DNA of 64,000 nucleotides from an uncultured Gemmatimonadota bacterium (GTDB taxonomy: Bacteria; JAAXHH01): NCBI GenBank assembly GCA_951812955.1, contig OX638340.1:3072001-3136000 (forward strand), written 5' to 3'. Made by a program: the position numbers and the translations under genes. Of the stretch, positions 4,521 to 21,328 are shown piece by piece (positions within the stretch are counted from its first letter, which is position 1; each line of letters opens with the position of its first letter). A model generated the notes under the pieces. It ran no database searches and was not told the origin of the DNA. It was given only the letters and a program-made list of their open reading frames with translations.

Positions 4521-4559
4521 ACTCGGCGCACCCTTTTACGGGGCTTTCGGCCGGCGGCC

Positions 4560-4636
4560 GCGGTTCGCAAAGCCCGAATTCAAAGGCCGGCCCGGCCGGG
4601 TGCTGCGGTTCGCGAAGCCTGTTTCCAAAGGCCGGC
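4560..4636. repeat. Two 32-bp imperfect direct repeats (gcggttcgcaaagcccgaattcaaaggccggc / gcggttcgcgaagcctgtttccaaaggccggc), period 45 bp, in divergent promoter region
   Basis: seen directly in sequence, 4560-4591 and 4605-4636. Confidence 0.6.
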
Positions 4637-4711
4637 TCGGTCTGCTCGACAACGCCAGCATGGTACAGGCTCCACCCTGAATTCGCAACTGTTTTCTTGG
4701 CGAGAAAAACC

Positions 4712-4740
4712 TTGACATAACCGTCGGACCGCAATATAAT
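4712..4740 (+). promoter_or_regulatory. Consensus sigma70-type promoter: TTGACA(4712-4717)-17 bp-TATAAT(4735-4740)
   Basis: perfect -35 and -10 hexamers with 17-bp spacer, about 55 nt upstream of leader ORF start. Confidence 0.55.
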
Positions 4741-4796
4741 GGCGCAATTCTAACAGTGGGCAGTCGAACGTGTTCCTCATCAAACTCTGGAAAGAA

Positions 4797-4916
4797 ATGA
4801 CAGCCGTTTACTCCTCCCGGTCATCGCGATTCGATTATTGGCGGAAGCAGAGCGATCTGTTTACCTGGTGGCCTTTTTACGGGACGAGGCGGCATGTCAT
4901 GCGAAGCGGCGCCTGA
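4797..4916 (+). CDS. Aromatic-codon-rich attenuation leader peptide (trpL-like), 39 aa: MTAVYSSRSSRFDYWRKQSDLFTWWPFYGTRRHVMRSGA
   Basis: manual translation; tandem TGG TGG at 4866-4871; 9 of 39 codons are Phe/Tyr/Trp; sits between consensus promoter and intrinsic terminator ahead of trpE. Confidence 0.55.
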   Translation: MTAVYSSRSSRFDYWRKQSDLFTWWPFYGTRRHVMRSGA

Positions 4917-4948
4917 TTGAAGTAGATTCATCCTTCGTTGATTTGACC

Positions 4949-4990
4949 GGCCTCTACCCACACAAGGTAGCGGCCTTTTTTTGTTTTGTG
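4949..4990 (+). terminator. Intrinsic terminator / attenuator hairpin: GGCCTCTACC-cacacaa-GGTAGCGGCC followed by TTTTTTTGTTTTGTG
   Basis: 10-bp GC-rich stem (1 mismatch) plus T-tract, 33 nt after leader stop and 76 nt before trpE ATG. Confidence 0.6.
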
Positions 4991-5065
4991 CGGGCATGAT
5001 CGCGACAGGCCGCTCCAGGTAGAGGGAATCCCAGGCAACTTGTCACCACGTAAAGGTCTGTAACC

Positions 5066-6553
5066 ATGTACAGGACATCCTACGACACCTTTCTGGAGTA
5101 CAACGGCAAGCCCGATTTCCCCCTGGTGCCCATCTGGCACGAACGGGACCTGACAGATGAAACGCCCGAGGAAACCTTCCACCGGATCAGCGCGGGATAC
5201 CGGTACGCCTTCCTGTTGGAGAGTATGGAAGGCGATCAGAAAACGGCGCGGTATTCCTTCGTAGGCGCAGATCCCTTTGAGCGTATCGTCGGAACGAAAC
5301 AGGGGATCAACAGGATCAACGACCGGGGGGTGCTGACGCTGAAGGGCAACCCCATCGAGCTGATGCGGGAAATCATGAGGGAATACCGGACCCCGGTGCT
5401 CGAACACCTGCCCCGGTTCACGGGCGGCGCCGTGGGATACCTCGGTTACGACGTCGTTCGGCACTTCGAAGAAATTCCGGACGACAACCCGGACGACCTG
5501 ATGATGCCCGACCTGCACTTCATCGTGGCAGGGAAGATTGTGGTTTTCGACCACGCGCGCAAGCGCATGTACGTGATCGTCAATATGCTGTCCAATGCCA
5601 CGGATCCCGCATCGGCCTACCGGCAGGGCATGACCCAGGTAGACGACATGCTGAAACGGATCGACCGGCCACAGCCTCCAGTCGAGTCCTTCGATGAAGG
5701 CCCGACCATGGAGGCGGATCGGACCGTGTCCTCCAACATGACCCGGGACGAGTTCGAGGATACGGTGAGGACGGCCAAGGAATACATCGCCGCGGGGGAC
5801 ATCTACCAGGTGGTGCTGTCCCAGCGGTTCAGGATGGAAGCCGGCCGGGATCCCTTCGATGTGTACCGGGCGCTCGCGAGGCTGAATCCATCGCCCTACC
5901 TGTTTTACCTGCGGCTGGACGACGTGCATATTGTCGGCTCCTCGCCCGAGACGATGGTACTGGCCGAGAACCGCAGGGTGACGGTACGCCCTCTGGCCGG
6001 GACTTGCCGGCGGGGCGCGGACGAGGCGGAAGACCGGCTGTTGATCGAAGAGATGCTGAATGATCCCAAGGAACGGGCGGAACATGTGATGCTGGTGGAC
6101 CTGGGCCGAAACGATATCGGCCGCATCTGCGAATACGGTACGGTTCGAACGTCGGAACTGATGGGCATAGAGCGGTATTCCCACGTGAGCCATATCGTAT
6201 CGAACGTGGAGGGACGCCTCCGGGAAGGCATCGATGGATTCGACGTGCTGGAGGCGACATTCCCGGCGGGGACCCTGTCCGGCGCACCCAAAATCCGGGC
6301 CATGGAAATCATCGACGAACAGGAGACCACCCGGCGCGGCGTGTACGGCGGGGCATTGGGGTATTTCGGTTTTTCGGACAACCTCGACCTGTGCATCACC
6401 ATTCGGACCATGGTTATCAAGGACGGCCAGGCCTACATCCAGGCGGGCGCCGGCATCGTCGCGGACTCGGATCCCGGAAAAGAATACGAGGAATGCTGGA
6501 AGAAGGCCGAGGCGCTGCTGCGGGCGCTGAAGGAAGCCGAGGTGGTTTCATGA
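5066..6553 (+). CDS. trpE: Anthranilate synthase component I
   Basis: 495 aa; TrpE/chorismate-binding family (LLESMEGD, C-terminal [22 protein letters not shown]). Confidence 0.9.
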
Positions 6554-7131
6554 TCCTGGTCATCGACAACTACGATTCTTTCACGTACAACCTCGTTCAG
6601 TACCTCGGGGAACTGGGTCAGCAGGTCACCGTGCGCCGTAACGACCGGATTACCCTTCCGGAGATCGAGGCCCTCGACCCGGACCACCTGGTCCTCTCTC
6701 CCGGGCCTTGCACCCCTGATGAAGCGGGCGTTTCCGTCGACGCGGTCCGTCGTTTCTCAGGCCGGCTGCCCATCCTGGGCGTATGCCTGGGACACCAGTC
6801 CATTGCCCAGGCCTACGGAGGACGGATCGTTCGCGCGTCGAAGCCCGTTCACGGCAAGACCTCCTCGATTGCCCACGATGGCGAATCCATCTTCAACCGG
6901 TTGCCGAATCCCTTCACCGCGACGCGTTACCACTCGCTGATCGTGGAAAAGGAAACACTGCCCGGATGCCTGGAAGTGACCGCGCGATCGGAGGACGGCC
7001 TGATCATGGGGTTGAGGCATGGTTCCCTGCCCGTTTACGGTGTACAGTTTCACCCGGAGTCCATACTGACCGAAGTAGGCAGACAGCTGTTGCGGAATTT
7101 CGTGGAGTCGAAGGCGTATGAACCAGCCTGA
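6550..7131 (+). CDS. trpG: Anthranilate synthase component II (glutamine amidotransferase)
   Basis: [23 protein letters not shown], catalytic GVCLGHQ; ATGA overlap with trpE stop. Confidence 0.9.
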
Positions 7132-7308
7132 TGTCATCCTGACCGGCATCAAGCCGACGGTCGGTCCGCTCATCGGCAACTATGCGGGCGCCGGCAGCAG
7201 GCGGGAGTCGGCAGGTACGGACATGGAGATCGCAAGGCAGGCGGTGGGAAGATAGCGGTGGAGATTTTGGTGTAAACGACTTATGCACCTCGATGGAGAC
7301 AGGCACCC

Positions 7309-8319
7309 ATGATACAGCAGGCGATAGCGAAGGCGATTGAAGGAATCTCGCTTTCCGAGGCGGAAGCCGTGGAGGTCATGAACGGGATCATGTCGGGCGA
7401 CGCGACGCCGGCGCAGATCGGCGCCTTCCTGATCGCCTTTCGACAGAAGGGCGAGACGATCGAAGAGGTCACCGGGTTTGCCCGGGTCATGCGGGCCAGG
7501 GCCACGCGGATAGACTGCCGCGCATACCCTATCGTGGATACCTGCGGCACGGGCGGCGACGGCAAGCATACGTTCAACATATCGACGGCGGCGGCCTTCG
7601 TGGCCGCGGCCGCGGGTGCCTTTATCGCCAAGCACGGGGGGCGCGCGGCATCCAGCAAGGCGGGCAGCGCCGACGTACTGACGGCCCTGGGCGTGAATAT
7701 CGAGACGCCGCCGGAGAAGGTGTCGGCATGCATCGACGAAATCGGCATCGGCTTCATGTTCGCCCCGGCCCTCCATTCCGCCATGCGATTCGCCAGCGGC
7801 CCGCGGCGGGAACTCGGCGTGCGGACGGTGCTCAACCTGCTGGGACCGTTGACCAATCCGGCCGGAACCACGGCCCAGGTCATGGGCGTATACGATGGAA
7901 GCGTCGTCCAGACCGCGGCCCACGTGCTGAACAACCTGGGGGCGGAACGTGCTTTCGTGGTGCACAGCGAAGACGGGTTGGACGAGATCGCGACCACGGC
8001 GCCGACCCACGTGGCGGAAGCCAGGGACGGCACCGTAAGGAGCTACGATATCGCGCCGGAAGACTTCGGTCTGCCACGGGCTTCCATCGAAGACCTCAAA
8101 GGTGGCGAAGCGGACGAGAACGCCGGGATCATCCGGTCCCTGCTTGAAGGGGAAACCGGCCCGAGAAGGGACATCGTCCTGCTGAACGCCGCGGCGGCGA
8201 TCGTCGCCGGAGGAAAGGCGGAGGATTTCAACGAGGGCATCACCCTGGCGGCCCGAGCGATCGATACCGGCGCGGCTAGGGAGAAACTGGACGCGTTGAT
8301 CAGGATGACGAACGCGTAA
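7309..8319 (+). CDS. trpD: Anthranilate phosphoribosyltransferase
   Basis: 336 aa; CGTGGDGKHTFNISTAAAFV motif. Confidence 0.9.
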   Translation: MIQQAIAKAIEGISLSEAEAVEVMNGIMSGDATPAQIGAFLIAFRQKGETIEEVTGFARVMRARATRIDCRAYPIVDTCGTGGDGKHTFNISTAAAFVAAAAGAFIAKHGGRAASSKAGSADVLTALGVNIETPPEKVSACIDEIGIGFMFAPALHSAMRFASGPRRELGVRTVLNLLGPLTNPAGTTAQVMGVYDGSVVQTAAHVLNNLGAERAFVVHSEDGLDEIATTAPTHVAEARDGTVRSYDIAPEDFGLPRASIEDLKGGEADENAGIIRSLLEGETGPRRDIVLLNAAAAIVAGGKAEDFNEGITLAARAIDTGAAREKLDALIRMTNA

Positions 8320-8360
8320 GTGCCTGGTACCGGCGGAGGCGGGAGTACGACGGGGAAAAC

Positions 8361-9170
8361 ATGGCAGCCATGAATATCCTGGACCAGATAGTAGCGCACA
8401 AATTCGACGAAATAGAAGACCGGAAGCGCCGTAGGCCGTTGCCTCGCGCTGAGCCCGGACGCCGGTCCGACGTGCGGCCGTTTGACCTTGCGCTGAAACA
8501 GGGGCACGGCATCTGCGTCATCGCCGAATTCAAGAAGGCTTCGCCGTCGAAGGGCGCGATACGTCCGGATGCCGTGCCCTCGGAGATCGGGCCGGTCTAC
8601 GCGGCTCACGGCGCCTCGGCCATTTCGGTGCTGACGGACCGGCGGTTCTTCCAGGGATGTGACGAGGACCTGGCGGCGCTTCGCGGGAGTGTGCCGGTAC
8701 CCGTGCTGCGAAAGGAATTCATCGTAGACGAATACCAGGTCCACGAGACGGCGGCCATGGGCGCGGACGCCATGCTGCTGATCGCGGCGGTACTGGACGA
8801 TGGCCGTCTGGCGGCACTGCGGCAGGCCGCGGCGGTATACGGCCTGCACTGCCTGGTGGAAGTACACGACGACGAGGAGTTGGACCGGGCCATGGAAGCC
8901 GGCAGCCGAATCATCGGCATCAACAACCGGGATCTGACGGATTTCACCGTTTCGCTGGATACTTCACTGAGACTGAGGCGGCGCATTCCCGATGGGATCG
9001 TGACCGTCAGCGAGAGCGGGATCCATACGCGTGAGGACGTCCTTATCCTGGAGCAGGCTGGATTCGACGCCGTACTCGTGGGCGAGTCCCTGATGGCGGC
9101 GGACGGGATCGGCGAACAACTGGACGCCCTGCTGGGCCGGGCACCCGTGCGAACAGGCGGCGGGGCCTGA
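8361..9170 (+). CDS. trpC: Indole-3-glycerol phosphate synthase
   Basis: 269 aa; IAEFKKASPSKG, INNRDL motifs. Confidence 0.85.
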   Translation: MAAMNILDQIVAHKFDEIEDRKRRRPLPRAEPGRRSDVRPFDLALKQGHGICVIAEFKKASPSKGAIRPDAVPSEIGPVYAAHGASAISVLTDRRFFQGCDEDLAALRGSVPVPVLRKEFIVDEYQVHETAAMGADAMLLIAAVLDDGRLAALRQAAAVYGLHCLVEVHDDEELDRAMEAGSRIIGINNRDLTDFTVSLDTSLRLRRRIPDGIVTVSESGIHTREDVLILEQAGFDAVLVGESLMAADGIGEQLDALLGRAPVRTGGGA

Positions 9171-9193
9171 AAGATCTCCCCGCGGACAGGATT

Positions 9194-9805
9194 ATGAACA
9201 CGGTCAAGATCAAGATTTGCGGCATCACGAATGAAGCGGACGCCTCCGCGGCGGTCCACGCGGGCGCGGACGCGCTGGGTTTCATTTTTTACGGTGGCAG
9301 CCCCCGGTACGTCGAGCCGGAGCAGGTCGCGGACATCGTGGGCGGCCTGCCGCCTTTCGTCGTGCCGGTAGGCGTTTTCGTGAACGCGTCGGTGGACGAA
9401 GTCGACGAAGTCTGCGAGAACACGGGGATCCAGGTCGCACAGCTCCATGGCGATGAATCGCCGGATTTTTGCACCAACGTGGGCCGGCCCGTCGTCAAGG
9501 CCCTTCGCGTCAGGGACGCGTCCTGGAAATCCGATGCCGCGGCCTATGCCGTCGGCGCGGTGCTGCTCGATACGTACGCCGAAGACCGGTATGGCGGTAC
9601 AGGGGTTGTGTTCGACTGGCGGCTCGTGGAAGGCAGCCCCCACCGCGTCATTCTGAGCGGCGGGCTGAACCCGATGAACGTGGCCGAGGCCGTGCGGAGC
9701 GTGCGTCCCTACGGTGTGGACACGGGGAGCGGTGTGGAGCGGGAGCCGGGCCGCAAGGATCACGGAAAGATCCGGGCCTTCGTGGAGGCCGCGAGGGGGG
9801 CGTAA
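9194..9805 (+). CDS. trpF: Phosphoribosylanthranilate isomerase
   Basis: 203 aa; KICGIT, QLHGDE motifs. Confidence 0.85.
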   Translation: MNTVKIKICGITNEADASAAVHAGADALGFIFYGGSPRYVEPEQVADIVGGLPPFVVPVGVFVNASVDEVDEVCENTGIQVAQLHGDESPDFCTNVGRPVVKALRVRDASWKSDAAAYAVGAVLLDTYAEDRYGGTGVVFDWRLVEGSPHRVILSGGLNPMNVAEAVRSVRPYGVDTGSGVEREPGRKDHGKIRAFVEAARGA

Positions 9806-10698
9806 TGAACACGCTGGACGAGGACGGGTCCCGGGGACTTTCTATTTCCGGTTCGACCCGCGTGGTCGGCGTATGCGGCCGGGGCATCGGTTACACCCTT
9901 TCGCCGGCCATGCACAACGCCGCCTTTCGGCATTGCGGACTGGACTACGTGTATGTAACCTTCGAAATCGCGGCGGCCGCCGTTCGACAGGCGGTAGACG
10001 GGATCCGGGGACTCGGGCTGGCGGGCGTAAACGTGACCAAGCCGCTCAAGACGGACGTACTGCCCTACCTGGACGAGGTGTCCGACGAGGCCCGAAGGAT
10101 CGGGTCGGTCAATACCATCGTCAACCGCTCGGGCCGGCTCGCCGGCGCTTCGACGGACGGCGCCGGACTACTGCGGGCACTCAGCGGAAAGGGTGTCACC
10201 GTCGAGGATTCGAGGGTGGTTATCCTGGGTGCCGGCGGTGCGGCCCGGGCGGCCTGCCATATGGCCAGGAGCGCGGGGGCGGGCTCGATTGCCATAGCCG
10301 CACGCGACGCGGCGCGCGCCGAAGACACCGCGGCGGTGGGAGGCGCATCGGCGGTTTCCCTGGCGCCGCGGGAACTGGGCGCCGCGATCGGGAGCGCCGA
10401 TCTGGTCATCAACGCGATCCCCGCGGACCTGCCCCTGGATGAAGACTGGTTCAATGCGGGACAATTTGTCTACGAAACGCGTTACGACCAGGAGGAGACA
10501 GGACTTATGCGTAACGCCCGGTCCCGGGGCGCGGGCGCGTTGAACGGCATCGATATGCTGCTGTTTCAAGGTGCTGAGTCGTTTGAGATCTGGACCGGAC
10601 GGCAGGCTCCGGTCGAAGTGATGAGAAGCGCCCTGGAAGATCAGTTGCGGCGCCGGGTAGACCAGGATGGGGCTGGTCATCCGGGACGTCCGACATAG
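9805..10698 (+). CDS. aroE: Shikimate dehydrogenase
   Basis: ATG at 9805 overlaps trpF TAA (TAATG); MNTLDE...GVCGRGIGYTLSPAMHNAAF, NVTKP, LGAGGAARAA. Confidence 0.85.
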   Translation: MNTLDEDGSRGLSISGSTRVVGVCGRGIGYTLSPAMHNAAFRHCGLDYVYVTFEIAAAAVRQAVDGIRGLGLAGVNVTKPLKTDVLPYLDEVSDEARRIGSVNTIVNRSGRLAGASTDGAGLLRALSGKGVTVEDSRVVILGAGGAARAACHMARSAGAGSIAIAARDAARAEDTAAVGGASAVSLAPRELGAAIGSADLVINAIPADLPLDEDWFNAGQFVYETRYDQEETGLMRNARSRGAGALNGIDMLLFQGAESFEIWTGRQAPVEVMRSALEDQLRRRVDQDGAGHPGRPT

Positions 10699-10801
10699 TG
10701 ATGGCGCTGAGGCCGGCGGCGCGGTTACATCGTCCGGCGGCGTACATATGCTTGACGGTCCGGGGCAGACCGGGCCGGGACCCTAGAAATCTGGAGACCG
10801 C

Positions 10802-11959
10802 ATGTTACGATACCTGACCGCAGGAGAATCTCACGGACCGGCGATATCGGCGATCCTCGAAGGGCTGCCCGCGGGGGTACCGGTCGCGGCGGAAGAGGTC
10901 AACCGCGACCTGAAACGGCGCCAGGGAGGATACGGACGAGGCCGGAGAATGCAGATCGAGACCGATACGATCGAAATCCGGGGCGGCGTCCGCCATGGAA
11001 AGACTATGGGCGGCCCGGTTTCCCTTGTGGTCCAGAACCAGGACTGGAAGAACTGGACGGACGTGATGTCGATCGAGGAGGCCGACGGTCCGGTGAGGCG
11101 CCGGGTGACGCGGCCCCGGCCGGGGCATGCCGACCTGGCGGGTGGCCTGAAGTACGACCGCCGCGACCTCCGGGACATCCTCGAGCGGGCCAGCGCCCGG
11201 GAAACGACCATGCGGGTTGCCGTCGGCGCAATCGCCCGCTCCCTGCTGGCGGAGTTCGGCATCCATGTACTCAGTCACGTCGTGCGGATCGGGCAGGTGG
11301 ACGCGGACGTGAGCGGACTGTCGAACGAACAGATCCTGGAACGGGCCGAGGCGTCGCCCGTGCGCTGCGCCGACGCGGACGCCGCGCAGAAGATGATCGG
11401 AGAAATCGACCGGGCAAAGTCCCTCAAGGACACGATCGGCGGAGTCTTCGAGGTCAAGGTGCTGAACGCGCCCCCCGGACTGGGCAGTCATGTGCAGTGG
11501 GACCGCAAGCTCGACGGACGACTCGCCCAGGCGGTCATGAGCATCCAGGCCGTGAAGGGGGTCGAGATCGGACTGGGCTTTGGCGTGTCCCGGGTGCTGG
11601 GTTCCGAGGTCCACGACGAGATCCACTATGGCGACGGCCGTTTTTACCGGGAAACGAACCGGGCCGGCGGCATCGAGGGCGGCATGACCGAAGGCGAGGA
11701 AATCGTGGTGCGCGGCGCCCTTAAGCCCATCGCGACCCTGATGCGCACCATCATGTCGGTGGATATCGAGACCAAGGAAGCCTTCGATTCCGCCAAGGAG
11801 CGTTCGGACGTCTGCACCGTACCCGCCGCCGGCGTGATCGGCGAAGCGGTGGTGGCCTTCGTCGTCGCCGACGCCATGCAGGAGAAATTCGGCGGCGACA
11901 GCCTGGAGGAGATGAAGCGGAACTACCAGGGCTACAAGGACCAGTTGGCCCGTTACTAG
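10802..11959 (+). CDS. aroC: Chorismate synthase
   Basis: 385 aa; MLRYLTAGESHGP, GRSSARETTMRVAVGA-like motifs. Confidence 0.9.
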   Translation: MLRYLTAGESHGPAISAILEGLPAGVPVAAEEVNRDLKRRQGGYGRGRRMQIETDTIEIRGGVRHGKTMGGPVSLVVQNQDWKNWTDVMSIEEADGPVRRRVTRPRPGHADLAGGLKYDRRDLRDILERASARETTMRVAVGAIARSLLAEFGIHVLSHVVRIGQVDADVSGLSNEQILERAEASPVRCADADAAQKMIGEIDRAKSLKDTIGGVFEVKVLNAPPGLGSHVQWDRKLDGRLAQAVMSIQAVKGVEIGLGFGVSRVLGSEVHDEIHYGDGRFYRETNRAGGIEGGMTEGEEIVVRGALKPIATLMRTIMSVDIETKEAFDSAKERSDVCTVPAAGVIGEAVVAFVVADAMQEKFGGDSLEEMKRNYQGYKDQLARY

Positions 11960-11963
11960 CGGA

Positions 11964-13643
11964 TTGTCCGGAGCATTTACCGGCAGCGCGCGGCCTCGGA
12001 TATCACCGGTCGAGGCGATCACGACAGGCAGGCGGCACGTGGCGAAAACTGGACAGGAGAAAGCCGGCGGCATCGTCCTGATCGGTTTCATGGGCACCGG
12101 AAAGACGGCGGTGGGGCGGCGGCTCGCAGGCGCCCTCGGCCTGCCCTTCGTGGACACCGACACGCTGATAGAGGAGCAGGCCGCGACCAGTATTCCGGAT
12201 CTCTTCAGGACGCGGGGCGAGACGGGTTTCCGGGCAATCGAGAAGCAGGTCATTCGCAGCCTTGCCGACGGGGAGCGCCGGGTGATCGCCACCGGAGGCG
12301 GCGCCGTGCTCGATCCGGACAACTTCGACGTGCTCAGGTCCCTCGGTCCGGTTATTCACCTGAGCGCGCCGGCGCCGACTATCCTGGCGCGAACGAAAGG
12401 CGACGCCGGCGTGCGGCCCCTGCTGGCCGGGGACGACCCGCTGGAGCGGATCCGGTCGCTTCAACGGGTGCGTGCGCCGGTCTACGGCCGAGCGGACCAC
12501 GAAGTCGACACGTCACGGCATACCATAGACGAGACCGTGGAGATGGTCATGGCATGGACCGGAAACGGCGAGCGCGTGATCCGGGTAGAACTCGGGGACG
12601 ACAGCTACGATATCGTGATCGGATCCGGCTGTCTCGGACGCCTGGGCTCCTTGATGAGTTCCTTCGACCTGACCGATCGCGCACTGGTCGTAACCCACCC
12701 GGATATCGCCACGCTCTACGGGGAACGGGCTGCGGACTCCCTGCGTTCGGCCGGCTTCGAACCGGCCGTGATCGAGGTGCCGGCCGGAGAAGAACAGAAA
12801 TCGCTGCAATGGGCCGAGAAGCTATACGACGCGATGCTGTCCCATCGCATGGACCGCCGTTCCCCCGTCATCGCGCTGGGCGGCGGGGTGGCCGGGGACC
12901 TGGCCGGCTTCGCCGCGGCCACCTTCCTGCGCGGCATTCCATTCATACAGGCTCCTACTTCTCTCCTCGCCCAGGTGGACGCCAGCGTGGGGGGCAAGGT
13001 CGCCGTGGACCACCGTCGTGGGAAGAACCTGATCGGCGCCTTCTACCAGCCTCTGCTCGTACTGGCCAGCCTGGACACGCTAGACAGTCTGCCCGATCGG
13101 GAACTGCGCGCGGGCATGGCGGAAGTGATCAAGTATGGGGTCATTGCAGACGCCGGCCTTTTCACCTATATTGAGGGTCGCCTTGACGAGATACTCAGGC
13201 GCGAATACGGTGCGCTCGCCCATCTGGTGGCCCGGTCCTGCGAGATCAAGGCCGATGTCGTTGCCGGGGACGAGCGTGAGCAGGGTCGGCGGGCCATACT
13301 CAACTTCGGCCACACCATGGGGCATGCCATCGAGACGCAGACCGGCATGCTGCACGGAGAGGCCGTGGCGATCGGCATGGTCTACGCGGCCCGTGTCGCG
13401 AAACGCCTGGGCATGCTGGACGGCGACAGCGTGCAAAGGCTGATCGAGTTGGTGCGTCGAACGGGGTTGCCGGTGCGCTGCGACGGCCTTGACGCTTCGG
13501 CGACCCTCGAAACCATGAAGTTGGACAAGAAATCGGTCGGTGGCCGCATGCGTTTCATCCTGCCGGAGCGAATTGGCGCGGTGGTCATCCGGGACGACGT
13601 CCCCAATGATTATATCCGGTCGGTCTTGACCGCGGGAACCTGA
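11964..13643 (+). CDS. aroKB: Bifunctional shikimate kinase / 3-dehydroquinate synthase (AroK-AroB fusion); true start may be internal near 12060
   Basis: 559 aa single ORF: N-terminal shikimate kinase Walker [22 protein letters not shown]-terminal DHQ synthase ([33 protein letters not shown]). Confidence 0.85.
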
Positions 13644-13676
13644 GTAGCGGCGCTACCAGGCAAAACGGAACGAAAC

Positions 13677-14123
13677 ATGAAATTACTCGTGTTGCACGGT
13701 CCGAATCTGAATATGCTGGGTGTCCGGGAACCGGAGGTCTACGGCAGAGATACGCTGGAAGACATCAACCGGTCCCTCGAGTCGGCCGCGGCGGACCAGG
13801 GAGTCGAGTTGCGCATTCGCCAGTCCAATCACGAAGGGGTGCTAGTGGACGAGATTCAGGAGGCCCTCGGGCGGGCGGAAGGCATCCTGATCAATCCCGG
13901 CGCGTACACGCATACGAGCATCGCCCTGCGCGACGCGATCGTCGCCGTGGGCCTGCCCGTCGTGGAGGTGCACCTGTCCGACATTCACGCCCGGGAGCAT
14001 TTCCGGCGCCATTCCTATATCGAGCCTGTGGCGCTCACGCAGATCTGCGGACATGGAAGCAGAAGTTACCTGCTGGGCCTGGAGGCCCTGGTCGATCATA
14101 TCAGGACGGGGAGCGAGGGATGA
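13677..14123 (+). CDS. aroQ: 3-dehydroquinate dehydratase, type II
   Basis: 148 aa; [33 protein letters not shown]. Confidence 0.9.
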
Positions 14124-15340
14124 CTGCCACCGCACTGCCTGACAAAAGAGGACACTTCGGGGTCTTCGGCGGCCGTTACGTCCCGGAAACGCTGATGACG
14201 GCCCTGGACGAACTCCTCGAGGTATATGAAGCGGCGACGCGGGATCCCGTCTTCGAGGATGAATTCCGCTACTTCCTGGCGGACTACGTGGGCCGGCCTT
14301 CCCCCCTTTACTTCGCGGAACGACTGACGGAGACCCTCGGCGGCGCCCGGATCTACCTCAAGCGGGAAGACCTGAACCACACGGGCGCCCACAAGATCAA
14401 TAACACCATCGGCCAGATCCTGCTGACCCGGCGCATGAATAAACCCCGGGTCATCGCCGAGACCGGAGCCGGCCAGCACGGCGTGGCCACGGCGACCGTG
14501 GCCGCCCGTTTCGGCCTGGAGTGCGACGTCTACATGGGGACCGAGGACATGGAACGCCAGGCGCTTAACGTCTTCCGCATGCGCCTGATGGGGAGCCGGG
14601 TCATCGGCGTCGACGCGGGCAGCCGCACGCTGAAGGACGCGCTGAACGAAGCCCTGCGCGACTGGGCGACCAACGTGCGGCATACCCATTACATCATCGG
14701 ATCGGTGGCGGGGCCCCATCCCTTCCCCTTGATGGTACGGGAATTCCAGTCGGTCATCGGCCGCGAAGCGCGCGGGCAGATCCTGGAGAAGGAAGGGCGG
14801 CTGCCGGATATGCTTGTCGCCTGCGTGGGGGGAGGCAGCAACGCCATCGGCCTCTTTCATCCTTTTCTAGACGACGAAGTGCAACTGGTCGGCGTGGAAG
14901 GGGCGGGGCACGGGCTCGACACCGGCCTGCACGCCGCGACGCTGGGCCAGGGCACGCCGGGCGTACTGCACGGCGCCATGAGCTATACGGGACAGGACGC
15001 AAATGGCCAGATCCAGGTCGCCCATTCCATCTCCGCCGGGCTGGACTATCCCGGTGTGGGACCCGAGCACAGCTACCTGAAGGACTCCGGCCGCGCGGAT
15101 TACGTCAGTGTGACCGATGACGAGGCGCTGGAGGCCTTCGAGCTGCTGTCCAGGGTCGAAGGCATCATACCCGCCCTGGAAAGCGCCCACGCCATCGGCC
15201 ATATCGCCCGGATCGCCCCGGGAATGGACCGGGATCAGATCATTGTCGCCGGGCTGTCGGGCCGCGGGGACAAGGATGTCGAGCAGGTATACGGATTCAT
15301 GGACCAGGAGCGGGTGGACCAGGAGCGGATGGAGGGCTGA
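14120..15340 (+). CDS. trpB: Tryptophan synthase beta chain
   Basis: 406 aa; [26 protein letters not shown] motifs. Confidence 0.9.
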
Positions 15341-16162
15341 ATGAACCGCATTGAAGAGACCTTCGCGACGCTTAAGTCTGCGGAACGGAAAGCGCTCGTC
15401 CCGTACATCATGGCGGGAGATCCGGACCTGGAAACGACCGCCGACCTGGTCGTGGAACTGGATCGCCGCGGCGCCGACCTGGTCGAACTGGGCGTTCCCT
15501 TCTCCGATCCCATCGCGGACGGCCCGACGATACAGCGCGCCGCGCTGCGGGCCCTGGATCAGGGCACGACCCTCCGGAACATCGTCGGTACGGTCGGATC
15601 CATCCGGGAGCGGTCGGACATACCAATCGTCCTGATGACCTATTACAACCCGGTACTCGCCTACGGTATCGAGGATCTTTGCCGAGATGCCGTCCGCACA
15701 GGTGTGGACGGTCTGATCGTACCCGACCTCCCGCCGGAAGAGGGCGGCGACCTGTCCGATGCCTGCCGGCGACATGGACTCACCGTCGTGTTCCTGGTGG
15801 CGCCCACGAGCACAAAGGCCCGGATCGAACTGGTGGGCCGCCACACCACGGGATTCGTATACTGCGTCTCCCTGACCGGCGTCACGGGCGCCCGGGGAAA
15901 GCTGGCGGACGGGGTGGACGAGTTTATGGCGCTGGTGCGGTCCCACACGGACCGGCCCCTTGGCCTGGGATTCGGCATTTCGTCGCCGGAACAGGCCAAT
16001 GAGGCCGCCCGGCTGGCCGACGGGGTCATCGTGGGCAGTGCCATAATCAACGTAATGGAAGAACACGCCGGCGAGCCGGATTTGATCCGGACCGTGGGCG
16101 AATACGTGGCTTCACTGAGAGCGGGCATAGACAGGAAGAACCCGGTGACCGCGCCGGGGTGA
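15341..16162 (+). CDS. trpA: Tryptophan synthase alpha chain
   Basis: 273 aa; LVPYIMAGDPDLETT, ELGVPFSDPIADGP, GFGIS. Confidence 0.9.
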   Translation: MNRIEETFATLKSAERKALVPYIMAGDPDLETTADLVVELDRRGADLVELGVPFSDPIADGPTIQRAALRALDQGTTLRNIVGTVGSIRERSDIPIVLMTYYNPVLAYGIEDLCRDAVRTGVDGLIVPDLPPEEGGDLSDACRRHGLTVVFLVAPTSTKARIELVGRHTTGFVYCVSLTGVTGARGKLADGVDEFMALVRSHTDRPLGLGFGISSPEQANEAARLADGVIVGSAIINVMEEHAGEPDLIRTVGEYVASLRAGIDRKNPVTAPG

Positions 16163-16375
16163 TTTCGGGTAACGGGTTCGATGCCGGGGTAGCTTCTGGT
16201 GCCGGGTACGATGCCGTTTGCACAGGAATTGAACATGACAGCAGTTTCATCCAGCCAGGGAGATGCATGTGGGAGTCGAGGAGCCCGGTCGGGTCTCTGC
16301 GGCTCCCACGTATTCCAACCAACTTTTCAGGTATGTTTCTGATAGAATCCAGCATTCCGCATTCCAGGAGGAACC

Positions 16376-16741
16376 ATGGTCCGGGGCGTTCGAGGCGCCA
16401 TAACCGTTGAACTGAACACCGCCGATGCCATTGGAGAAGCGTCCCGGCGACTGCTGTCGGCGATCGTCGACGCCAATCGCATCGAATTGGAGCAGATCGC
16501 CAGCGTCATCTTTTCCGCGACGAAGGATCTCGACGCCGAGACGCCCGCATTGGGAGCGCGCCAGATGGGATGGACGTCGATCCCCCTGTTCTGCACCCAG
16601 GAGATGGAAGTCCCAGACGGACTTGCCCGGTGCATCCGGGTTCTGATTCACGTAAACACGGTAAAACCACAGGATGAAATACGGCATGTTTACCTGAACG
16701 GAGCCGTAGTACTCAGGCCGGACATCGCCGAAGGAGGTTGA
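16376..16741 (+). CDS. aroH: Chorismate mutase, AroH class (monofunctional)
   Basis: 121 aa; [12 protein letters not shown]...CIRVLIHV...[15 protein letters not shown] matches AroH-type CM; AGGAGG RBS 6 nt upstream. Confidence 0.8.
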
Positions 16742-16742
16742 A

Positions 16743-17759
16743 ATGGTGGTCGTAATGAAGCCGCAGGCTTCGGAAGACCAGAAGGAGCATGTAAGGGATA
16801 CCATCCGTGCTTTCGGCTGCAAACCGCGTGACATTCAGGGTGACGCAATTACAATTATCTGTCTTATCGGCAATACACTGAGCCTTTCGCCCGAACAGTT
16901 TGAAATCCTTGACGGGGTGGACCGGGTTCAGCGCATTCAGCGGCCATACAAGCTCGTAAGCCGGGAAGTGCAGCCGCACAAGACCCAATTTCAGGTAGGC
17001 AACGTCACGATCGGCGGCGATGGGATTACCATCATAGCCGGTCCCTGTTCGGTCGAATCCTATGACCAGTTCGTGGAAGCGGCGCGGCACGCCCGGGCGG
17101 CCGGGGCCCACATCATCCGCGGCGGCGCGTTCAAGCCGCGGACTTCCCCCTACAGTTTCCAGGGGCTCGGCGAGGAAGGCCTGAAGATCATGGCCCGGGT
17201 CAGCGAGGAAACGGGACTGCCGACCATCTCGGAGGTGATGGAGCCGGAAATGGAACCGATGGTCTCCGAGTACGTGGACATGCTGCAGGTCGGCGCGCGC
17301 AATATGCAGAACTACCCGCTGTTGAACGCCGTGGGACAGAGTTCCAGGCCCGTCATGCTCAAGCGCGGCATGTCCGCCACGATCGAGGAGATGCTGCTGG
17401 CGGCAGAATACATCCTTGCGGGGGGAAACCACAACGTCGTTCTGTGCGAGCGGGGTATACGGACCTTCGAGACCTGGACGCGGAATACACTCGACATCTC
17501 GGCCGTGCCGGTGTTACAGAAATACACCCATCTGCCGGTCTTCATCGATCCGAGCCACGGAACCGGCAACGCGGATTTCGTGGGTCCGGCGTCCCGGGCG
17601 GCCGTTGCGGTCGGCGCGGACGGACTCATGATCGAGATGCATCCCAGACCCGAGCGCGCACTTTCGGACGGGGACCAGTCTCTGACTCCGGAAGCGTTTG
17701 CCTCGCTGATTCCGGAATTGCAGGCGGTCGCGACAGCCGTGAACCGCACCATAGACTGA
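16743..17759 (+). CDS. aroF: 3-deoxy-7-phosphoheptulonate (DAHP) synthase, type I-beta with N-terminal ferredoxin-like regulatory domain
   Basis: 338 aa; N-terminal about 80 aa ([43 protein letters not shown]) resembles the FL regulatory domain of Thermotoga-type DAHPS; core [23 protein letters not shown]. Confidence 0.8.
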
Positions 17760-17767
17760 GTTCGTTT

Positions 17768-18631
17768 ATGCGAGTCACCATCATCGGAGTCGGATTGCTG
17801 GGCGGTTCCTTCGGCATGGCGCTCCGCAAGTCGGGGGCGGCGGATCATGTCGCGGGCGTCGACCTGGACCGGGCAACGCTCGACCGGGCCATCGATCGCG
17901 GCGCGGTCGACGAGGGATTCCTCGACCTGGCCGAGGGGGTGGAAAGGGCCGACCTGGTCGTGCTCGCCACGCCGGTCCGGGCCATACTCGAGATGCTGCC
18001 GGGCCTGGCGTCGATTCTCGGTGCGGAGACCGTCCTCCTGGACCTGGGCAGCACCAAGGAGGCCATCGTTTCCACCGTCGCCAGTCAGGCCGGAATCAAA
18101 CGGTATGTCGGCGGACACCCCATGGCGGGAACCGAGCACGCCGGCATCGAACACGCCGATGCCCGGTTGCTGCAAGACGCGACTTTCGCCCTGGTCCCGC
18201 CTCCCGAGGTCGATGAAGGGGCTGTCGATCTGCTCACGGATCTCGTCCGCGGGATCGGCGCCTGTCCCGTCGTCATTCCCGCGGAACGCCACGACCGGAT
18301 CGTTTCCATAACCAGCCACCTCCCCTACCTGCTGTCCGTAGTGTTGGCGCTCGCCGCGGAAAACATGGCGCGCGAGGAAGACCGCCTGGGAGCGTTTGCG
18401 GCATCGGGATTTCGGGACACCACCCGTCTGGCCGCGTCCAACGTGCGCGTGATGGCCGACATTTGTCTGACGAACGGCCGGCCACTGCTCCGCGGCATCG
18501 AGGACGCCAGGCGGTTGCTGGACGACCTGGCGGCGCTGATCGAGGAGGGACGCGAGTCGGAACTGGTGAGGACGCTGACGACAGCGAAGGAAAGCAGGGC
18601 CTCGTTGTTGGAGGAGAGGAGAACCGATTGA
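17768..18631 (+). CDS. tyrA: Prephenate dehydrogenase
   Basis: ATG 17768; MRVTIIGVGLLGGSFGMALRKSG Rossmann N-terminus, HPMAGTE motif. Confidence 0.85.
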   Translation: MRVTIIGVGLLGGSFGMALRKSGAADHVAGVDLDRATLDRAIDRGAVDEGFLDLAEGVERADLVVLATPVRAILEMLPGLASILGAETVLLDLGSTKEAIVSTVASQAGIKRYVGGHPMAGTEHAGIEHADARLLQDATFALVPPPEVDEGAVDLLTDLVRGIGACPVVIPAERHDRIVSITSHLPYLLSVVLALAAENMAREEDRLGAFAASGFRDTTRLAASNVRVMADICLTNGRPLLRGIEDARRLLDDLAALIEEGRESELVRTLTTAKESRASLLEERRTD

Positions 18632-19470
18632 ACAAGTACAGGACCGGCTTCCAGGGCGAACTGGGCGCTTTCAGCGAAATGGCCGTGCAGGCATATTTCG
18701 GGGACGCGGCCGAACCGGTGCCACACGGGTGGTTCGACGACGTGTTCCGCGCCGTGGACGAAGGGCGGTGCGACTACGGGATGCTTCCGATCGAAAACAC
18801 CCTCGCGGGCAGCATCCACGTCAATTACGACCTGATGCAGGAGCACGACCAGCAAATCGTCGGCGAGATCGTGCTCCGGATCGTCCACAACCTGATGGCG
18901 AAACCGGGTGTCCGCCCGGAGGAACTCCGCCGGGTCCAGTCTCATCCCAAGGCGCTGGAACAGTGCGTCCGGTTTTTCCGGGAACATCCGTCGCTGAAGC
19001 CCGAAACTGTTTACGACACGGGCGGCGCGGCCAAGATGCTAGGTGAGGGAGAAGACCGGGACATCGGCGTGATCGCGAGTACCCGCGCCGCGGAGCGGTA
19101 CGGACTCGAGATCCTGGAGCACGGCATCGAAGACAACGTCCAGAACTATACGCGTTTCCTGGTCCTGGGCAGGGAGCCCGAACCACCTGTGGGCGAACGC
19201 CTTAAGACCTCCATCGTGTTCTCGATGCCCCACGAACCCGGCACGTTGTTCAAGGCCATGAGCGTATTCGCGCTGCGGGACATCTCCATCAACAAGATCG
19301 AATCGCGGCCCCTGGTCGGATCCCCCTGGGAGTACCTGTTCTACCTGGATTTCGAGGGACACGCCGACAGTCTGCTCTGCAAACGTGCGCTCAACCACCT
19401 CCAGGAGATCGCGACCAACTTCAAGCTGCTGGGATCCTACGCCGAGGGCAGCATCGTGGACCGGGTCTGA
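18628..19470 (+). CDS. pheA: Prephenate dehydratase (PDT + ACT domain)
   Basis: TTG 18628 (RBS GGAGGAGAGGA upstream) overlapping tyrA stop; NYTRFLVLG (TRF motif), ESRPLVGSPWEYLFYLD (ESRP motif). Confidence 0.85.
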   Translation: MNKYRTGFQGELGAFSEMAVQAYFGDAAEPVPHGWFDDVFRAVDEGRCDYGMLPIENTLAGSIHVNYDLMQEHDQQIVGEIVLRIVHNLMAKPGVRPEELRRVQSHPKALEQCVRFFREHPSLKPETVYDTGGAAKMLGEGEDRDIGVIASTRAAERYGLEILEHGIEDNVQNYTRFLVLGREPEPPVGERLKTSIVFSMPHEPGTLFKAMSVFALRDISINKIESRPLVGSPWEYLFYLDFEGHADSLLCKRALNHLQEIATNFKLLGSYAEGSIVDRV

Positions 19471-19480
19471 AGGGAACGGA

Positions 19481-21328
19481 TCATCCACGGTCCGAAGCCC
19501 CCGGCTGATCGGCCTGCCTGAGTTCAAGCCTGGGTTCGACGAAAAGCGTTTTTTCGCGGGTAAACACAACCTGCCCGGGCGCGCCGTTTTTCATTTTCCT
19601 GACGTAACGGCGTTCCGTGTAGTCCACCGGCACGGTGGTGGACCCCCGGCCCTTGCTGAAGTAGGCCGTCAGGCAGGCCGCTTCGTACAGGGTCCTTTTA
19701 CTCGGCATCTGGGTCTTGTCCACCCTCCGCAGAATCACGTGGGAACCGCCGAGGTCCCGCGCATGGAGCCAGATGTCGTCCGGCGCCGCCGATTTTGTGA
19801 GCGCTTCGTTTTCCCGGCTGTTGCGGCCCACCAGCAGCAGGTGTCCGTTCGATGTCATGTACCTTCTCGGGTGTATGTCGCGTCCGGCCTGTTTGCGTGA
19901 ACGTTTCGTTGCGCCGGCCTTACGGGGCGCCTTGACGAGATCCAGTCTGATGCAGGCCCTGTGGGCATCCTCCAGCTTTTTTGCGTCCGCACCGCTATCC
20001 AGCTCCGCACGGATGCCCTCGACTACTTCCAGTCGTCTTCGAGCCTGGCCCAGGCGATGCGCCACCGCCTTCCGTCCGTCTCTGGCTTTCCGGGCCATGC
20101 GGAAATACCACCGGGCGTTTTCCGCCGGCGACAGCCCGGGCTTCAACGGTATGACAATTTCCTCCCGTTCATCGCTGAAATAGTCTTCGACCCGGGCTTC
20201 CGTCGACCCCGCTTTCAACCGGGCTATGTGAGACGTGATCAAGTCGCCGTACCTGCGGTATTCCTCTTCCCGCTCCACGTGATCCTGGTCGCGGGCAAGG
20301 TTCGCCGTCAAACGCTCCAGGCGCCGGATTTCATCCCGCAGGGCGCGTTGTACCGTCAGCAACCGTTGCTTCGAGGCTTCTTCCGCTTTCCGCTCTGCGT
20401 AGAAAGTTTCTACGGCGACGCTGATGGATTCGTAGTGCTCGACCTGCGCATCCGGAAGGGAGTGGACCGGGACCGCCGACAGCAACCGGACCCGGCCGTC
20501 ATGCGACCTGCCGAGACAGGGCGTCCAGTCCCTGGCCCGGACTCGGTCGACAAGTTCATGCAGGCTCTGCCAGACCCGGTCAGCGCGGCCGCCCGGGCCC
20601 CCGTCGGCAAAGCCTGCGGCATCCGACAGGCCGGCCCGGGCCAGCACTTCCATGGCCATATCCCTGGATAGTCCCGCGAACGTGGCGGACAAGTGACGCG
20701 CCAGGTCTACCGAAGTTTTCAGGTTGTCCATATCGTCCAGTAGTCTGCGCGTCGCATCCAAAAGCGGTGTTTTTTCCATCGGCGGAGGAAATAAGTAGGT
20801 CTCACCGGGTACCAGTGGCCTGTCGGCGCCCCGGATGCGCCTGAGGGTCTCTAGAATAACCCGGTCCGGCTCGGAAAGGAACACCATGATGCCCCGGTTC
20901 CCGATGAGTTCAGCGATCAGGCGATAGCGGCGGTGTTCCGGCGATGATCGTCCCTGGATGTGCAGGTCCACCACCCGTTCAAACGGCGCCACGACGATCT
21001 TTTCCAGTGTACCGGGAACGAGATGGTCGCGCAGCGCACCGAGCAGGGCGGAAGCAGCCTCGCTCTTCCGCGTTGAATCCGAAAGATGTGCCCGTGCGAA
21101 ACCCGGTTGCACGGAAAGGGAAAGCACCCGCCTGCCCGTGCTCGTCTTCAGGACGAGGCCGATTTCCATGGGCGCGTATTGGTCGATGGCCGCAATACGC
21201 GTCCCCTCCAGGAACCTGCACTCGTCTTTTACGGCCTGCAACGCCAGGGCATCCATGACTGGTTTATCCTGTTTCCCGTGCCGGGCAGATAGGAATTGGT
21301 AGACGTTCTTCGACGCCTGAATCATCAT
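19481..21328 (-). CDS. rqcH: RqcH / FbpA-like NFACT-family ribosome quality control protein
   Basis: 615 aa; coiled-coil middle, C-terminal NFACT-R/DUF814-like IWLHARDLGGSHVIL. Confidence 0.7.
   Translation of the reverse strand: MMIQASKNVYQFLSARHGKQDKPVMDALALQAVKDECRFLEGTRIAAIDQYAPMEIGLVLKTSTGRRVLSLSVQPGFARAHLSDSTRKSEAASALLGALRDHLVPGTLEKIVVAPFERVVDLHIQGRSSPEHRRYRLIAELIGNRGIMVFLSEPDRVILETLRRIRGADRPLVPGETYLFPPPMEKTPLLDATRRLLDDMDNLKTSVDLARHLSATFAGLSRDMAMEVLARAGLSDAAGFADGGPGGRADRVWQSLHELVDRVRARDWTPCLGRSHDGRVRLLSAVPVHSLPDAQVEHYESISVAVETFYAERKAEEASKQRLLTVQRALRDEIRRLERLTANLARDQDHVEREEEYRRYGDLITSHIARLKAGSTEARVEDYFSDEREEIVIPLKPGLSPAENARWYFRMARKARDGRKAVAHRLGQARRRLEVVEGIRAELDSGADAKKLEDAHRACIRLDLVKAPRKAGATKRSRKQAGRDIHPRRYMTSNGHLLLVGRNSRENEALTKSAAPDDIWLHARDLGGSHVILRRVDKTQMPSKRTLYEAACLTAYFSKGRGSTTVPVDYTERRYVRKMKNGAPGQVVFTREKTLFVEPRLELRQADQPGASDRG

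Follow-up and report, generated by a model that had tools for sequence, protein, structure and literature searches.

The leader-peptide design of transcription attenuation is best known from Proteobacteria and Actinobacteria, and its classical examples include hisL and the multivalent thr and ilvGMEDA leaders. To our knowledge, gene regulation in the Gemmatimonadota, which are abundant in soils and seas, is almost unstudied. Leader-peptide attenuators are also known for trp and pheA (trpL, pheL) and for Corynebacterium glutamicum aroR, which has mixed phenylalanine/tyrosine (Phe/Tyr) codons (PMC11802643); according to the summary of Neshat et al. 2014 given in that source, the aroR leader (Phe-Tyr-Phe) lies upstream of an operon for DAHP synthase (DAHP, the 7-phosphate of 3-deoxy-D-arabino-heptulosonate). 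Aromatic supraoperons have been described for Bacillus, Desulfovibrio vulgaris and Nostoc: in B. subtilis the order is aroF-aroB-aroH-trpEDCFBA-hisC-tyrA-aroE, and in D. vulgaris aroA'-aroB'-aroQ.pheA, the gene for 5-enolpyruvylshikimate-3-phosphate (EPSP) synthase and tyrA are joined to a seven-gene trp operon (PMC1173090). Here we describe a stretch of 64,000 nucleotides from an uncultured Gemmatimonadota bacterium (assembly GCA_951812955.1, contig OX638340.1, positions 3,072,001 to 3,136,000; hereafter the window), in which positions 5066 to 19470 carry 15 genes for aromatic amino acid biosynthesis. The region upstream of the first gene, trpE, suggests that this core operon is probably under ribosome-mediated transcription attenuation.

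An earlier sequence-only reading of this stretch concentrated on the genes and overlooked the control region, although the putative leader-peptide attenuator found there is the most informative feature of the locus. A sigma-70-type promoter (TTGACA, 17-nt spacer, TATAAT; 4712-4740, plus strand) agrees with the consensus at 12 of 12 positions and is the best, and the only perfect, match in the scanned region 4000-20500; transcription is predicted to start near 4747. Both hexamers and their spacing are kept in five relatives and also in further loci. Fifty nt past the predicted start and 150 nt before trpE lies an open reading frame (ORF) of 39 codons with an ATG start (4797-4916, plus strand; MTAVYSSRSSRFDYWRKQSDLFTWWPFYGTRRHVMRSGA), which contains three tryptophan (Trp), three Phe and three Tyr codons, and whose cluster F22, W24, W25, F27 and Y28 (4860-4880, within LFTWWPFYG) is invariant. 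Downstream of it, an intrinsic terminator (4949-4982, plus strand) is formed by GGCCUCUACC, a 7-nt loop and GGUAGCGGCC followed by U7, 84 nt before the trpE start codon; its G+C-rich stem of 9 bp with one mismatch (hairpin 4949-4975) is kept in all related loci. When the exact terminator motif was scanned for metagenome-wide, seven stretches were recovered, each at this leader. Four of them continue into a trpE homologue, and the remaining three are short contigs with the same leader ORF that end soon after, two with at most a weak trpE match and one, L094 (related loci are given L numbers), ending too soon to show trpE.

The leader ORF, the terminator and the promoter are kept in about ten distinct lineages. 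In eight main-clade lineages the ORF has 39 codons and an invariant LF[TS]WWPFYG, and across ~30 variable nucleotide positions the main clade shows zero frameshifts or stops. The aromatic codons upstream of the cluster shift yet remain (F12/Y14/W15, Y12/Y14/W15 or F14/W15/W16 by lineage), and three distant lineages have other, equally or more aromatic leader peptides (..QAWFWQAFPFSRWFFYG.., MTYALAPIASYRIQAWLWRVFPFTRWFF.., ..FFSYSFRPFWQAFRFVWRPFY..). Aromatic residues make up 21-31% of the leader peptides versus 5.6% of the operon's enzymes; with the enzyme background of W 0.4%, F 2.9% and Y 2.4%, this enrichment has a binomial P of 2e-4 in the window and from 1e-3 to 2e-7 per peptide in the relatives. 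Positions of F, Y and W that shift while the composition is retained are the signature of selection on codon identity. By a codon-position test, leader codons 1-21 have 10, 9 and 10 variable sites at positions 1, 2 and 3, with no third-position excess and thus no evidence of selection on the N-terminal peptide sequence; ORF integrity and aromatic content alone are maintained. From the WW codons through the terminator, nucleotide conservation is near total, third codon positions included, which shows a constraint at the RNA level. The leader of L089 (L089:3028-3456) has one T fewer in a TTTTTT(T) run than that of L088, and its ORF stops early (..RWFFTGLR*), 62 nt before the terminator versus about 30 nt; the cause is either an assembly error in the homopolymer or a frameshift of natural origin.

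Folding places an alternative structure between the ORF and the terminator. The antiterminator helix (4881-4961, plus strand) pairs the 5' arm GGGACGAGGCGGCAUGUCAUGCGAAG (4881-4905, leader codons 29-37) with 4935-4961, a 3' partner that takes in the terminator's 5' arm; as long as the 3' arm of the terminator has yet to be made, this helix is worth about -29 kcal/mol (ViennaRNA). An RNAalifold consensus built from nine sequences contains the core of the helix, and four pairs have both of their bases changed. We then modeled ribosome positions by folding only the RNA downstream of the ribosome; this replaced a first ribosome-masking model, in which RNA behind the ribosome could pair with RNA ahead and the terminator formed almost everywhere. 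In the downstream folds, the antiterminator is most stable as long as the A site has not passed codon 24, and the terminator from codon 25. In a pre-terminator kinetic model, the terminator arm ceases to be sequestered at the last aromatic cluster, both in the window and in L001, L086, L093, L088 and L089. With no ribosome at all, the full leader folds into a 1:2 pairing (ORF start with the antiterminator arm) plus the terminator, as in the classical design. Promoter, ORF, terminator and alternative helix can all be read in the sequence itself and in its conservation, and together with these models they give good support to the reading of the leader as a ribosome-mediated attenuator.

Several observations weigh against this interpretation. 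The core antiterminator helix is otherwise invariant, so that covariation support is thin, with four two-sided changes only, and the leader ATG is preceded by GGA, a weak Shine-Dalgarno sequence. The switch in the kinetic model is weak in L090, and when L088, L089 and L090 are modeled at equilibrium, the terminator is favored almost wherever the ribosome sits, so that a switch appears there only in the kinetic model. The whole leader is not more stable than its shuffles (z -0.8), and its global stability is therefore no evidence for an attenuator.

The proposed mechanism would run as follows. Transcription would start near 4747, and a ribosome would translate the 39-codon leader, which contains codons for Trp, Phe and Tyr. 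Should charged tRNA be scarce for one or more of the three, the ribosome would stall at or before the FTWW codons (4860-4871), leaving 4881-4905 free to pair with 4935-4961; the terminator's 5' arm would then be sequestered by the antiterminator, letting RNA polymerase continue into trpE and the rest of the block. If the amino acids were plentiful, the ribosome would traverse codons 29-39 to the stop codon and melt the antiterminator, so that the hairpin 4949-4975 with its U7 would form and transcription would end before trpE. In this scheme, that the leader responds to charged tRNA, and to which of the three amino acids it does so, is our inference.

Whether the leader is a three-way Trp/Phe/Tyr sensor is evenly balanced in our judgment. 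The modeled switch lies at WW, which makes Trp the best-placed signal; F12, Y14, W15 and F22 are also upstream of the switch point. A ribosome stalled at F27 or Y28 would already sit on part of the antiterminator, so the sensing of Phe and Tyr may depend on F12, Y14 and F22 and, in these models, may be weaker than that of Trp, a further point against control by all three. We also compared the composition of the operon enzymes with that of a rough set of ORFs taken from elsewhere in the window. Trp is about threefold rarer in the enzymes (0.3-0.4% versus 0.9%, Fisher P 5e-5), Phe is mildly depleted (2.6% versus 3.6%) and Tyr is not; this fits enzymes that are needed while these amino acids are scarce.

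The same conserved leader could act otherwise, as a Trp-only sensor with incidental Phe and Tyr codons, as a protein- or ligand-binding RNA, or as an arrest peptide or functional micropeptide. The RNA-level constraint, with near-total conservation from WW to the terminator including third positions, is what such other modes would have in their favor, and the position of the modeled switch at WW speaks for Trp alone, as does the precedent of the C. glutamicum AroR leader, for which, in the account given in PMC11802643, Tyr availability was without effect despite its Phe-Tyr-Phe. However, each lineage retains several F and Y codons besides W with shifting positions, and an operon that also makes Phe and Tyr would be misregulated by Trp alone. 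No known riboswitch, T-box or leader family matches: across the whole window no Rfam family reached its gathering score, and at E up to 10 the region 4400-5200 gave a single chance-level small RNA match, on the opposite strand. T-boxes, riboswitches and the known leader families (Trp_leader, Phe_leader and relatives) were thus rejected, with no covariance-model match in the leader. As for an induction by free Trp of the TnaC kind, the logic of a biosynthetic operon fits stalling at hungry codons instead. Taken together, we consider these other modes of action improbable, and ribosome-mediated attenuation remains the preferred reading.

Compared with E. coli trpL and the classical leaders, the window shares a promoter, a short ORF with end-product codons and a mutually exclusive antiterminator and terminator; the tandem Trp codons at the switch point and a stop codon inside the antiterminator arm are likewise shared with the trpL type. 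It differs from them in lacking sequence or covariance-model similarity to the Rfam leader families, in its longer peptide (39 aa) with codons for three different end products and in controlling, as predicted, the common pathway and three branches. The aroR leader of C. glutamicum is similar in that a common-pathway gene is under a leader peptide whose aromatic codons are mixed, whereas, within what PMC11802643 reports of it, it has no Trp codons, trpL is a separate leader for the trp operon, limitation for Phe alone is effective, and the operon under its control is small rather than a whole pathway. A literature search, which was not exhaustive, returned no reported attenuator in Gemmatimonadota and no leader in which codons for Trp, Phe and Tyr are combined ahead of an operon for the whole pathway.

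The block behind this leader consists of 15 consecutive plus-strand ORFs that fill 5066-19470 (~14.4 kb) in the order trpE-G-D-C-F-aroE-aroC-aroK::aroB-aroQ-trpB-A-aroH-aroF-tyrA-pheA. Functions were called with NCBIfam models against their curated cut-offs, which 14 ORFs exceeded for the function given here; the fused gene's shikimate-kinase domain (E 1e-49) and TyrA (E 1e-60) fell below equivalog cut-offs despite a strong family match. The block begins with the anthranilate synthase genes trpE (component I; 5066-6553; TIGR00564, 568 bits versus a cut-off of 518) and trpG (glutamine amidotransferase; 6550-7131; TIGR00566, 267 bits), followed by trpD (anthranilate phosphoribosyltransferase; 7309-8319; TIGR01245, 427 bits), trpC (indole-3-glycerol-phosphate synthase; 8361-9170; NF001377, 304 bits) and trpF (phosphoribosylanthranilate isomerase; 9194-9805; NF002298, 250 bits). 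Then come aroE (shikimate dehydrogenase; 9805-10698; TIGR00507, 207 bits versus 200), aroC (chorismate synthase; 10802-11959; NF003793, 439 bits), the aroK::aroB fusion (shikimate kinase and 3-dehydroquinate synthase; 12039-13643; TIGR01357, 381 bits, and shikimate kinase models) and aroQ (type II 3-dehydroquinate dehydratase; 13677-14123; TIGR01088, 198 bits). The tryptophan branch resumes with trpB and trpA (tryptophan synthase beta, 14120-15340, TIGR00263, 617 bits, and alpha, 15341-16162, TIGR00262, 278 bits). The last four genes are aroH (monofunctional AroH-type chorismate mutase; 16376-16741; TIGR01796, 140 bits versus 82), aroF (DAHP synthase of the Bacillus/Thermotoga type; 16743-17759; NF006421, 483 bits versus 335), tyrA (prephenate/arogenate dehydrogenase; 17768-18631; best matches at E 1e-60) and pheA (prephenate dehydratase; 18628-19470; NF008865, 236 bits versus 219).

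The block thus encodes six of the seven shikimate-pathway steps, all seven activities of the tryptophan branch, chorismate mutase, prephenate dehydrogenase and prephenate dehydratase. The names and order of the 15 genes are those of the sequence-only reading, and the hidden Markov model search, which could have gone against the calls of aroH, aroE and the fused gene, upheld all three; we regard the functional annotation as well supported and hardly in doubt. TyrA orthologues have PDH_N and PDH_C domains, and since TyrA lies below the equivalog cut-offs, we name both prephenate and arogenate as its possible substrates. DAHP synthase orthologues combine PF00793 with PF18152, an N-terminal ferredoxin-like regulatory domain, a domain architecture that suggests feedback inhibition at the enzyme level. 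For aroK::aroB the likely start is GTG at 12039, with an alternative TTG at 11964; the GTG is favored because a 534-aa database protein (P0001), 100% identical, begins there. Proteins grouped with it at 90% bear the name Gemmatimonadota bacterium.

EPSP synthase (aroA) is the gap in the shikimate gene set. A tblastn search with E. coli AroA found no match within the 64-kb window, where the ten ORFs of 400-500 aa outside the block encode CoaBC, DnaB, RsmB, Ffh and others, none of them EPSP synthase. As a positive control, the same query recovered EPSP synthase in seven unrelated loci at 27-44% identity; it found none in any Gemmatimonadota-lineage locus retrieved, and the Pfam gene lists within 10 kb of the block in relatives contain none. 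The search and its control thus bear out the view that aroA is the sole shikimate step not encoded here. An aromatic aminotransferase, for the last step to Phe and Tyr, is not encoded in the block either, a gap on which that reading was silent. In many bacteria EPSP synthase and the aminotransferase belong to another conserved linkage group, hisHb-tyrA-EPSP synthase-cmk-rpsA (PMC1173090), and we infer that both activities are supplied from elsewhere in the genome.

The genes are tightly packed. Four-nt overlaps join trpE to trpG (ATGA), aroQ to trpB (ATGA) and tyrA to pheA (TTGA, with a TTG start at 18628), and trpF overlaps aroE by 1 nt (TAATG, with the aroE ATG at 9805). These four overlaps had been claimed before; the fifth claimed, trpB/trpA, turned out to be an abutment (TGA then ATG, 0-nt gap). 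With 1 nt between aroH and aroF, the block has four overlapping junctions, two with gaps of 0-1 nt, and a widest gap of 213 nt. The GTG start of aroK::aroB leaves a gap of 79 nt after aroC, the fourth besides the three, 7132-7308, 10699-10801 and 16163-16375, that had been put forward as possible carriers of internal promoters. That proposal had to be revised: the promoter scan found nothing in any gap, 10699-10801 shows no promoter-like match, and the other two have other content.

The trpG-trpD gap (7132-7308) is mostly occupied by a remnant of trpS, the gene for tryptophan-tRNA ligase: at 7118-7255 (plus strand) an in-frame fusion of N- and C-terminal ends, 45 codons long, was found by tblastn with the TrpS of L084, with 70% identity to residues 7-33 and 68% to residues 333-357. 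An intact trpS stands at the same position in L084 (TIGR00233, 261 bits) and L085, and L001 has a shorter relic. By these alignments, the gap is the scar of a deleted trpS.

The widest gap, between trpA and aroH (16163-16375), contains a hairpin of 41 nt (GTGGGAGTCGAGGAGCCCGGTCGGGTCTCTGCGGCTCCCAC; 16269-16309, plus strand; folding z-score -3.1). It also stands directly upstream of aroH in L084, L085, L089 and L090, and the changes in its stem are compensatory (A-T to C-G, T-A or T.G to C-G). The hairpin could terminate or process the transcript before aroH, which would tell against a single attenuated unit and opens an alternative with two or more units, in which trpE to trpA would be attenuated and would end or be processed at 16269-16309, and aroH-aroF-tyrA-pheA would be expressed from a promoter of its own in the 213-nt gap, perhaps with aroC onward expressed from the 103-nt gap. 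Such a division would agree with the strength and the compensatory conservation of the hairpin in five loci, with an extended -10-like TGATAGAAT at 16340-16348, 28 nt before the aroH ATG, and with the situation in L088 and L089, where aroH-aroF is parted from trpA by an unrelated gene and lacks tyrA-pheA, suggesting that the 3' module is separable in evolution. But the hairpin has no U tract (GUAUUCC follows) and is absent from L001, L086 and L088, all with the same gene order; relatives do not retain the -10-like match, and chance alone would give 0.12 matches of the TGATAGAAT type in the window; and with the promoter scan empty in all gaps, the sole perfect promoter in 4000-20500 is the one that precedes the leader. 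We therefore consider a division into several units unlikely, though a more serious contender than the other modes of leader action discussed above.

A small ORF in the same gap (16235-16342, MTAVSSSQGDACGSRGARSGLCGSHVFQPTFQVCF) begins like the trpE leader (MTAV.SS), reads through the hairpin and ends with three Phe codons. Same-frame ORFs run through the hairpin in L084, L085, L089 (where a gene of 52 aa has been called) and L090, all of them carrying F, Y or W a short way beyond it, and judging from sequence the ORF may be a second leader for the aroH-aroF-tyrA-pheA module. A reading of the hairpin as a dispersed repeat was rejected, since it is unique in the window and in relatives occurs at this position only. 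In the trpA-aroH gap, Rfam at E up to 10 gave chance-level matches only, and a search of 16163-16375 for a remnant of ornithine cyclodeaminase, a gene found there in some relatives (see below), returned none.

The preferred reading of the block as largely one transcript, which on the present layout we consider reasonably likely, fits the single consensus promoter and attenuator at the 5' end, the four overlaps and the collinearity in about ten lineages; all genes lie on the same strand, with short or overlapping junctions and conserved order, as expected of one operon. A stronger version, in which one leader would read Trp, Phe and Tyr charging for the whole pathway as a single 14.4-kb transcript, and the pre-aroH hairpin and ORF would act as a second internal control tuning the Phe/Tyr module, is tentative and stands at rather less than an even chance; if true, this would be the most integrated amino-acid-family attenuator known. 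At the other end of the block, only 10 nt separate the stop of pheA from that of a convergent gene of the RqcH/NFACT family (19481-21328, minus strand), and no canonical terminator lies in this interval, so the operon 3' end must lie inside the opposing gene.

With respect to the described supraoperons, the block resembles that of B. subtilis in having trp genes on one strand with tyrA and the genes for chorismate mutase and common-pathway steps; both also use a chorismate mutase of the AroH type and a DAHP synthase of the Bacillus-type family. In B. subtilis, however, an intact trp operon lies inside the aro operon, and the nesting of trpEDCFBA between aroF-aroB-aroH and hisC-tyrA-aroE is not seen in the window, where trpEGDCF and trpBA are parted by aroE-aroC-aroK::aroB-aroQ, an arrangement that, as had been noted, is that of neither E. 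coli nor Bacillus. B. subtilis has EPSP synthase and the hisC aminotransferase and no pheA, the reverse of the block described here, and its control is by the TRAP protein, whereas here a leader peptide is predicted; reading 4741-5065 by eye, without a formal scan, we noticed no TRAP-type (G/U)AG triplet array. D. vulgaris shares one block for the Trp, Phe and Tyr branches and common-pathway steps, but differs in its early enzymes (an alternative route to dehydroquinate), in having EPSP synthase, in an uninterrupted trp operon and in having most shikimate steps outside the block. Two Chloroflexi metagenome-assembled genomes also have large same-strand trp/aro blocks with the fused gene in an aroC-aroK::aroB-aroQ module: L039 (1-21497; trpDCFBA-aroH-tyrA-aroA-aroE-aroC-aroK::aroB-aroQ, with tyr included and EPSP synthase at 6604-7860) and L015 (1-17461, Caldilineaceae; trpGDCF-aroC-aroK::aroB-aroQ). 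Their order is different, their proteins are 37-60% identical, and in L039 trpBA is not separated from trpF. The idea of an aromatic super-operon is thus not unique; this gene order is.

Within uncultured Gemmatimonadota-like genomes, the gene order is kept at AroK::AroB identities of 58-100%: 85% in L001-L003, 81% in L084 and L085, 68% in the marine L086, 64% in L090 (labelled Zixibacteria), 62% in L088 and 58% in L089, all with the same order. The comparison of synteny suggested by the sequence-only reading thus gave collinearity in about ten lineages, and these relatives share upstream flanks with a thymidylate kinase gene (tmk) and a gene for a MusI-like membrane protein. A profile search of contigs with a 20-sequence AroK::AroB alignment was driven by universal AroB motifs; it served as a control set and as the source of the Chloroflexi blocks described above; the AroK::AroB matches listed were from distant genomes only, at 37-52% identity, none of them Gemmatimonadota.

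This conservation also bears on whether the block might be a redundant, specialized copy feeding a secondary-metabolite pathway, as in the Nostoc/Anabaena supraoperon of trp and aro genes. Redundant trp/aro supraoperons are known (PMC1173090), and aroA must anyway come from elsewhere. Against this, housekeeping flanks are conserved (tmk upstream; RqcH, gmk, coaBC, dnaB and ffh downstream), the block is vertically conserved across lineages at 58-100% identity, no tailoring or secondary-metabolite genes are adjacent, and the enzymes show the threefold Trp depletion expected if they are made during Trp starvation, all of which makes a redundant copy highly improbable.

The conserved order has been remodeled at several points. 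In L084 (2009-5325) and L085 (1917-5248), a fused clade-3 TrpE(G) replaces the split trpE/trpG of the window (compared over 5066-7308), with trpS between the fusion and trpD. The fused protein, also present in L093 and L095, is 30-33% identical to the TrpE of the window (33% in L084 and L085); at these loci the other operon genes are 77-93% identical and the leader is unchanged. From the alignments, the first gene appears to have been exchanged for a xenologue while the conserved attenuator ahead of it stayed. In L088-L090, a gene for a nickel-pincer-nucleotide-dependent ornithine cyclodeaminase (TIGR00300, 536 bits) lies between trpA and aroH (L088:14132-15361, L089:14162-15403, L090:13839-15095), and L088 and L089 have no tyrA-pheA after DAHP synthase. 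The ornithine cyclodeaminase has no evident link to aromatic biosynthesis.

The locus provides a concrete, testable regulatory element for the phylum and, if the attenuation reading is true, it would represent the classical leader design adapted to the multivalent control, from a single promoter, of a whole amino-acid family. It also offers a dated series of remodeling events in one lineage, namely loss of trpS with a scar, a change from split trpE/trpG to fused trpE(G), insertion of ornithine cyclodeaminase and addition of tyrA-pheA, and the 15 genes, as a compact aromatic module under one switch, could serve as an engineering part.

Upstream of the promoter, the divergent intergenic region carries a tandem direct repeat of 45 nt (4548-4637, 80% identical), with a similar duplication in L085. 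Between this repeat and the promoter of the leader, a conserved block at 4655-4700 has the look of a promoter on the minus strand, TTGCGA-17-TACCAT, that would serve the divergent genes, tmk and that of the MusI-like membrane protein.

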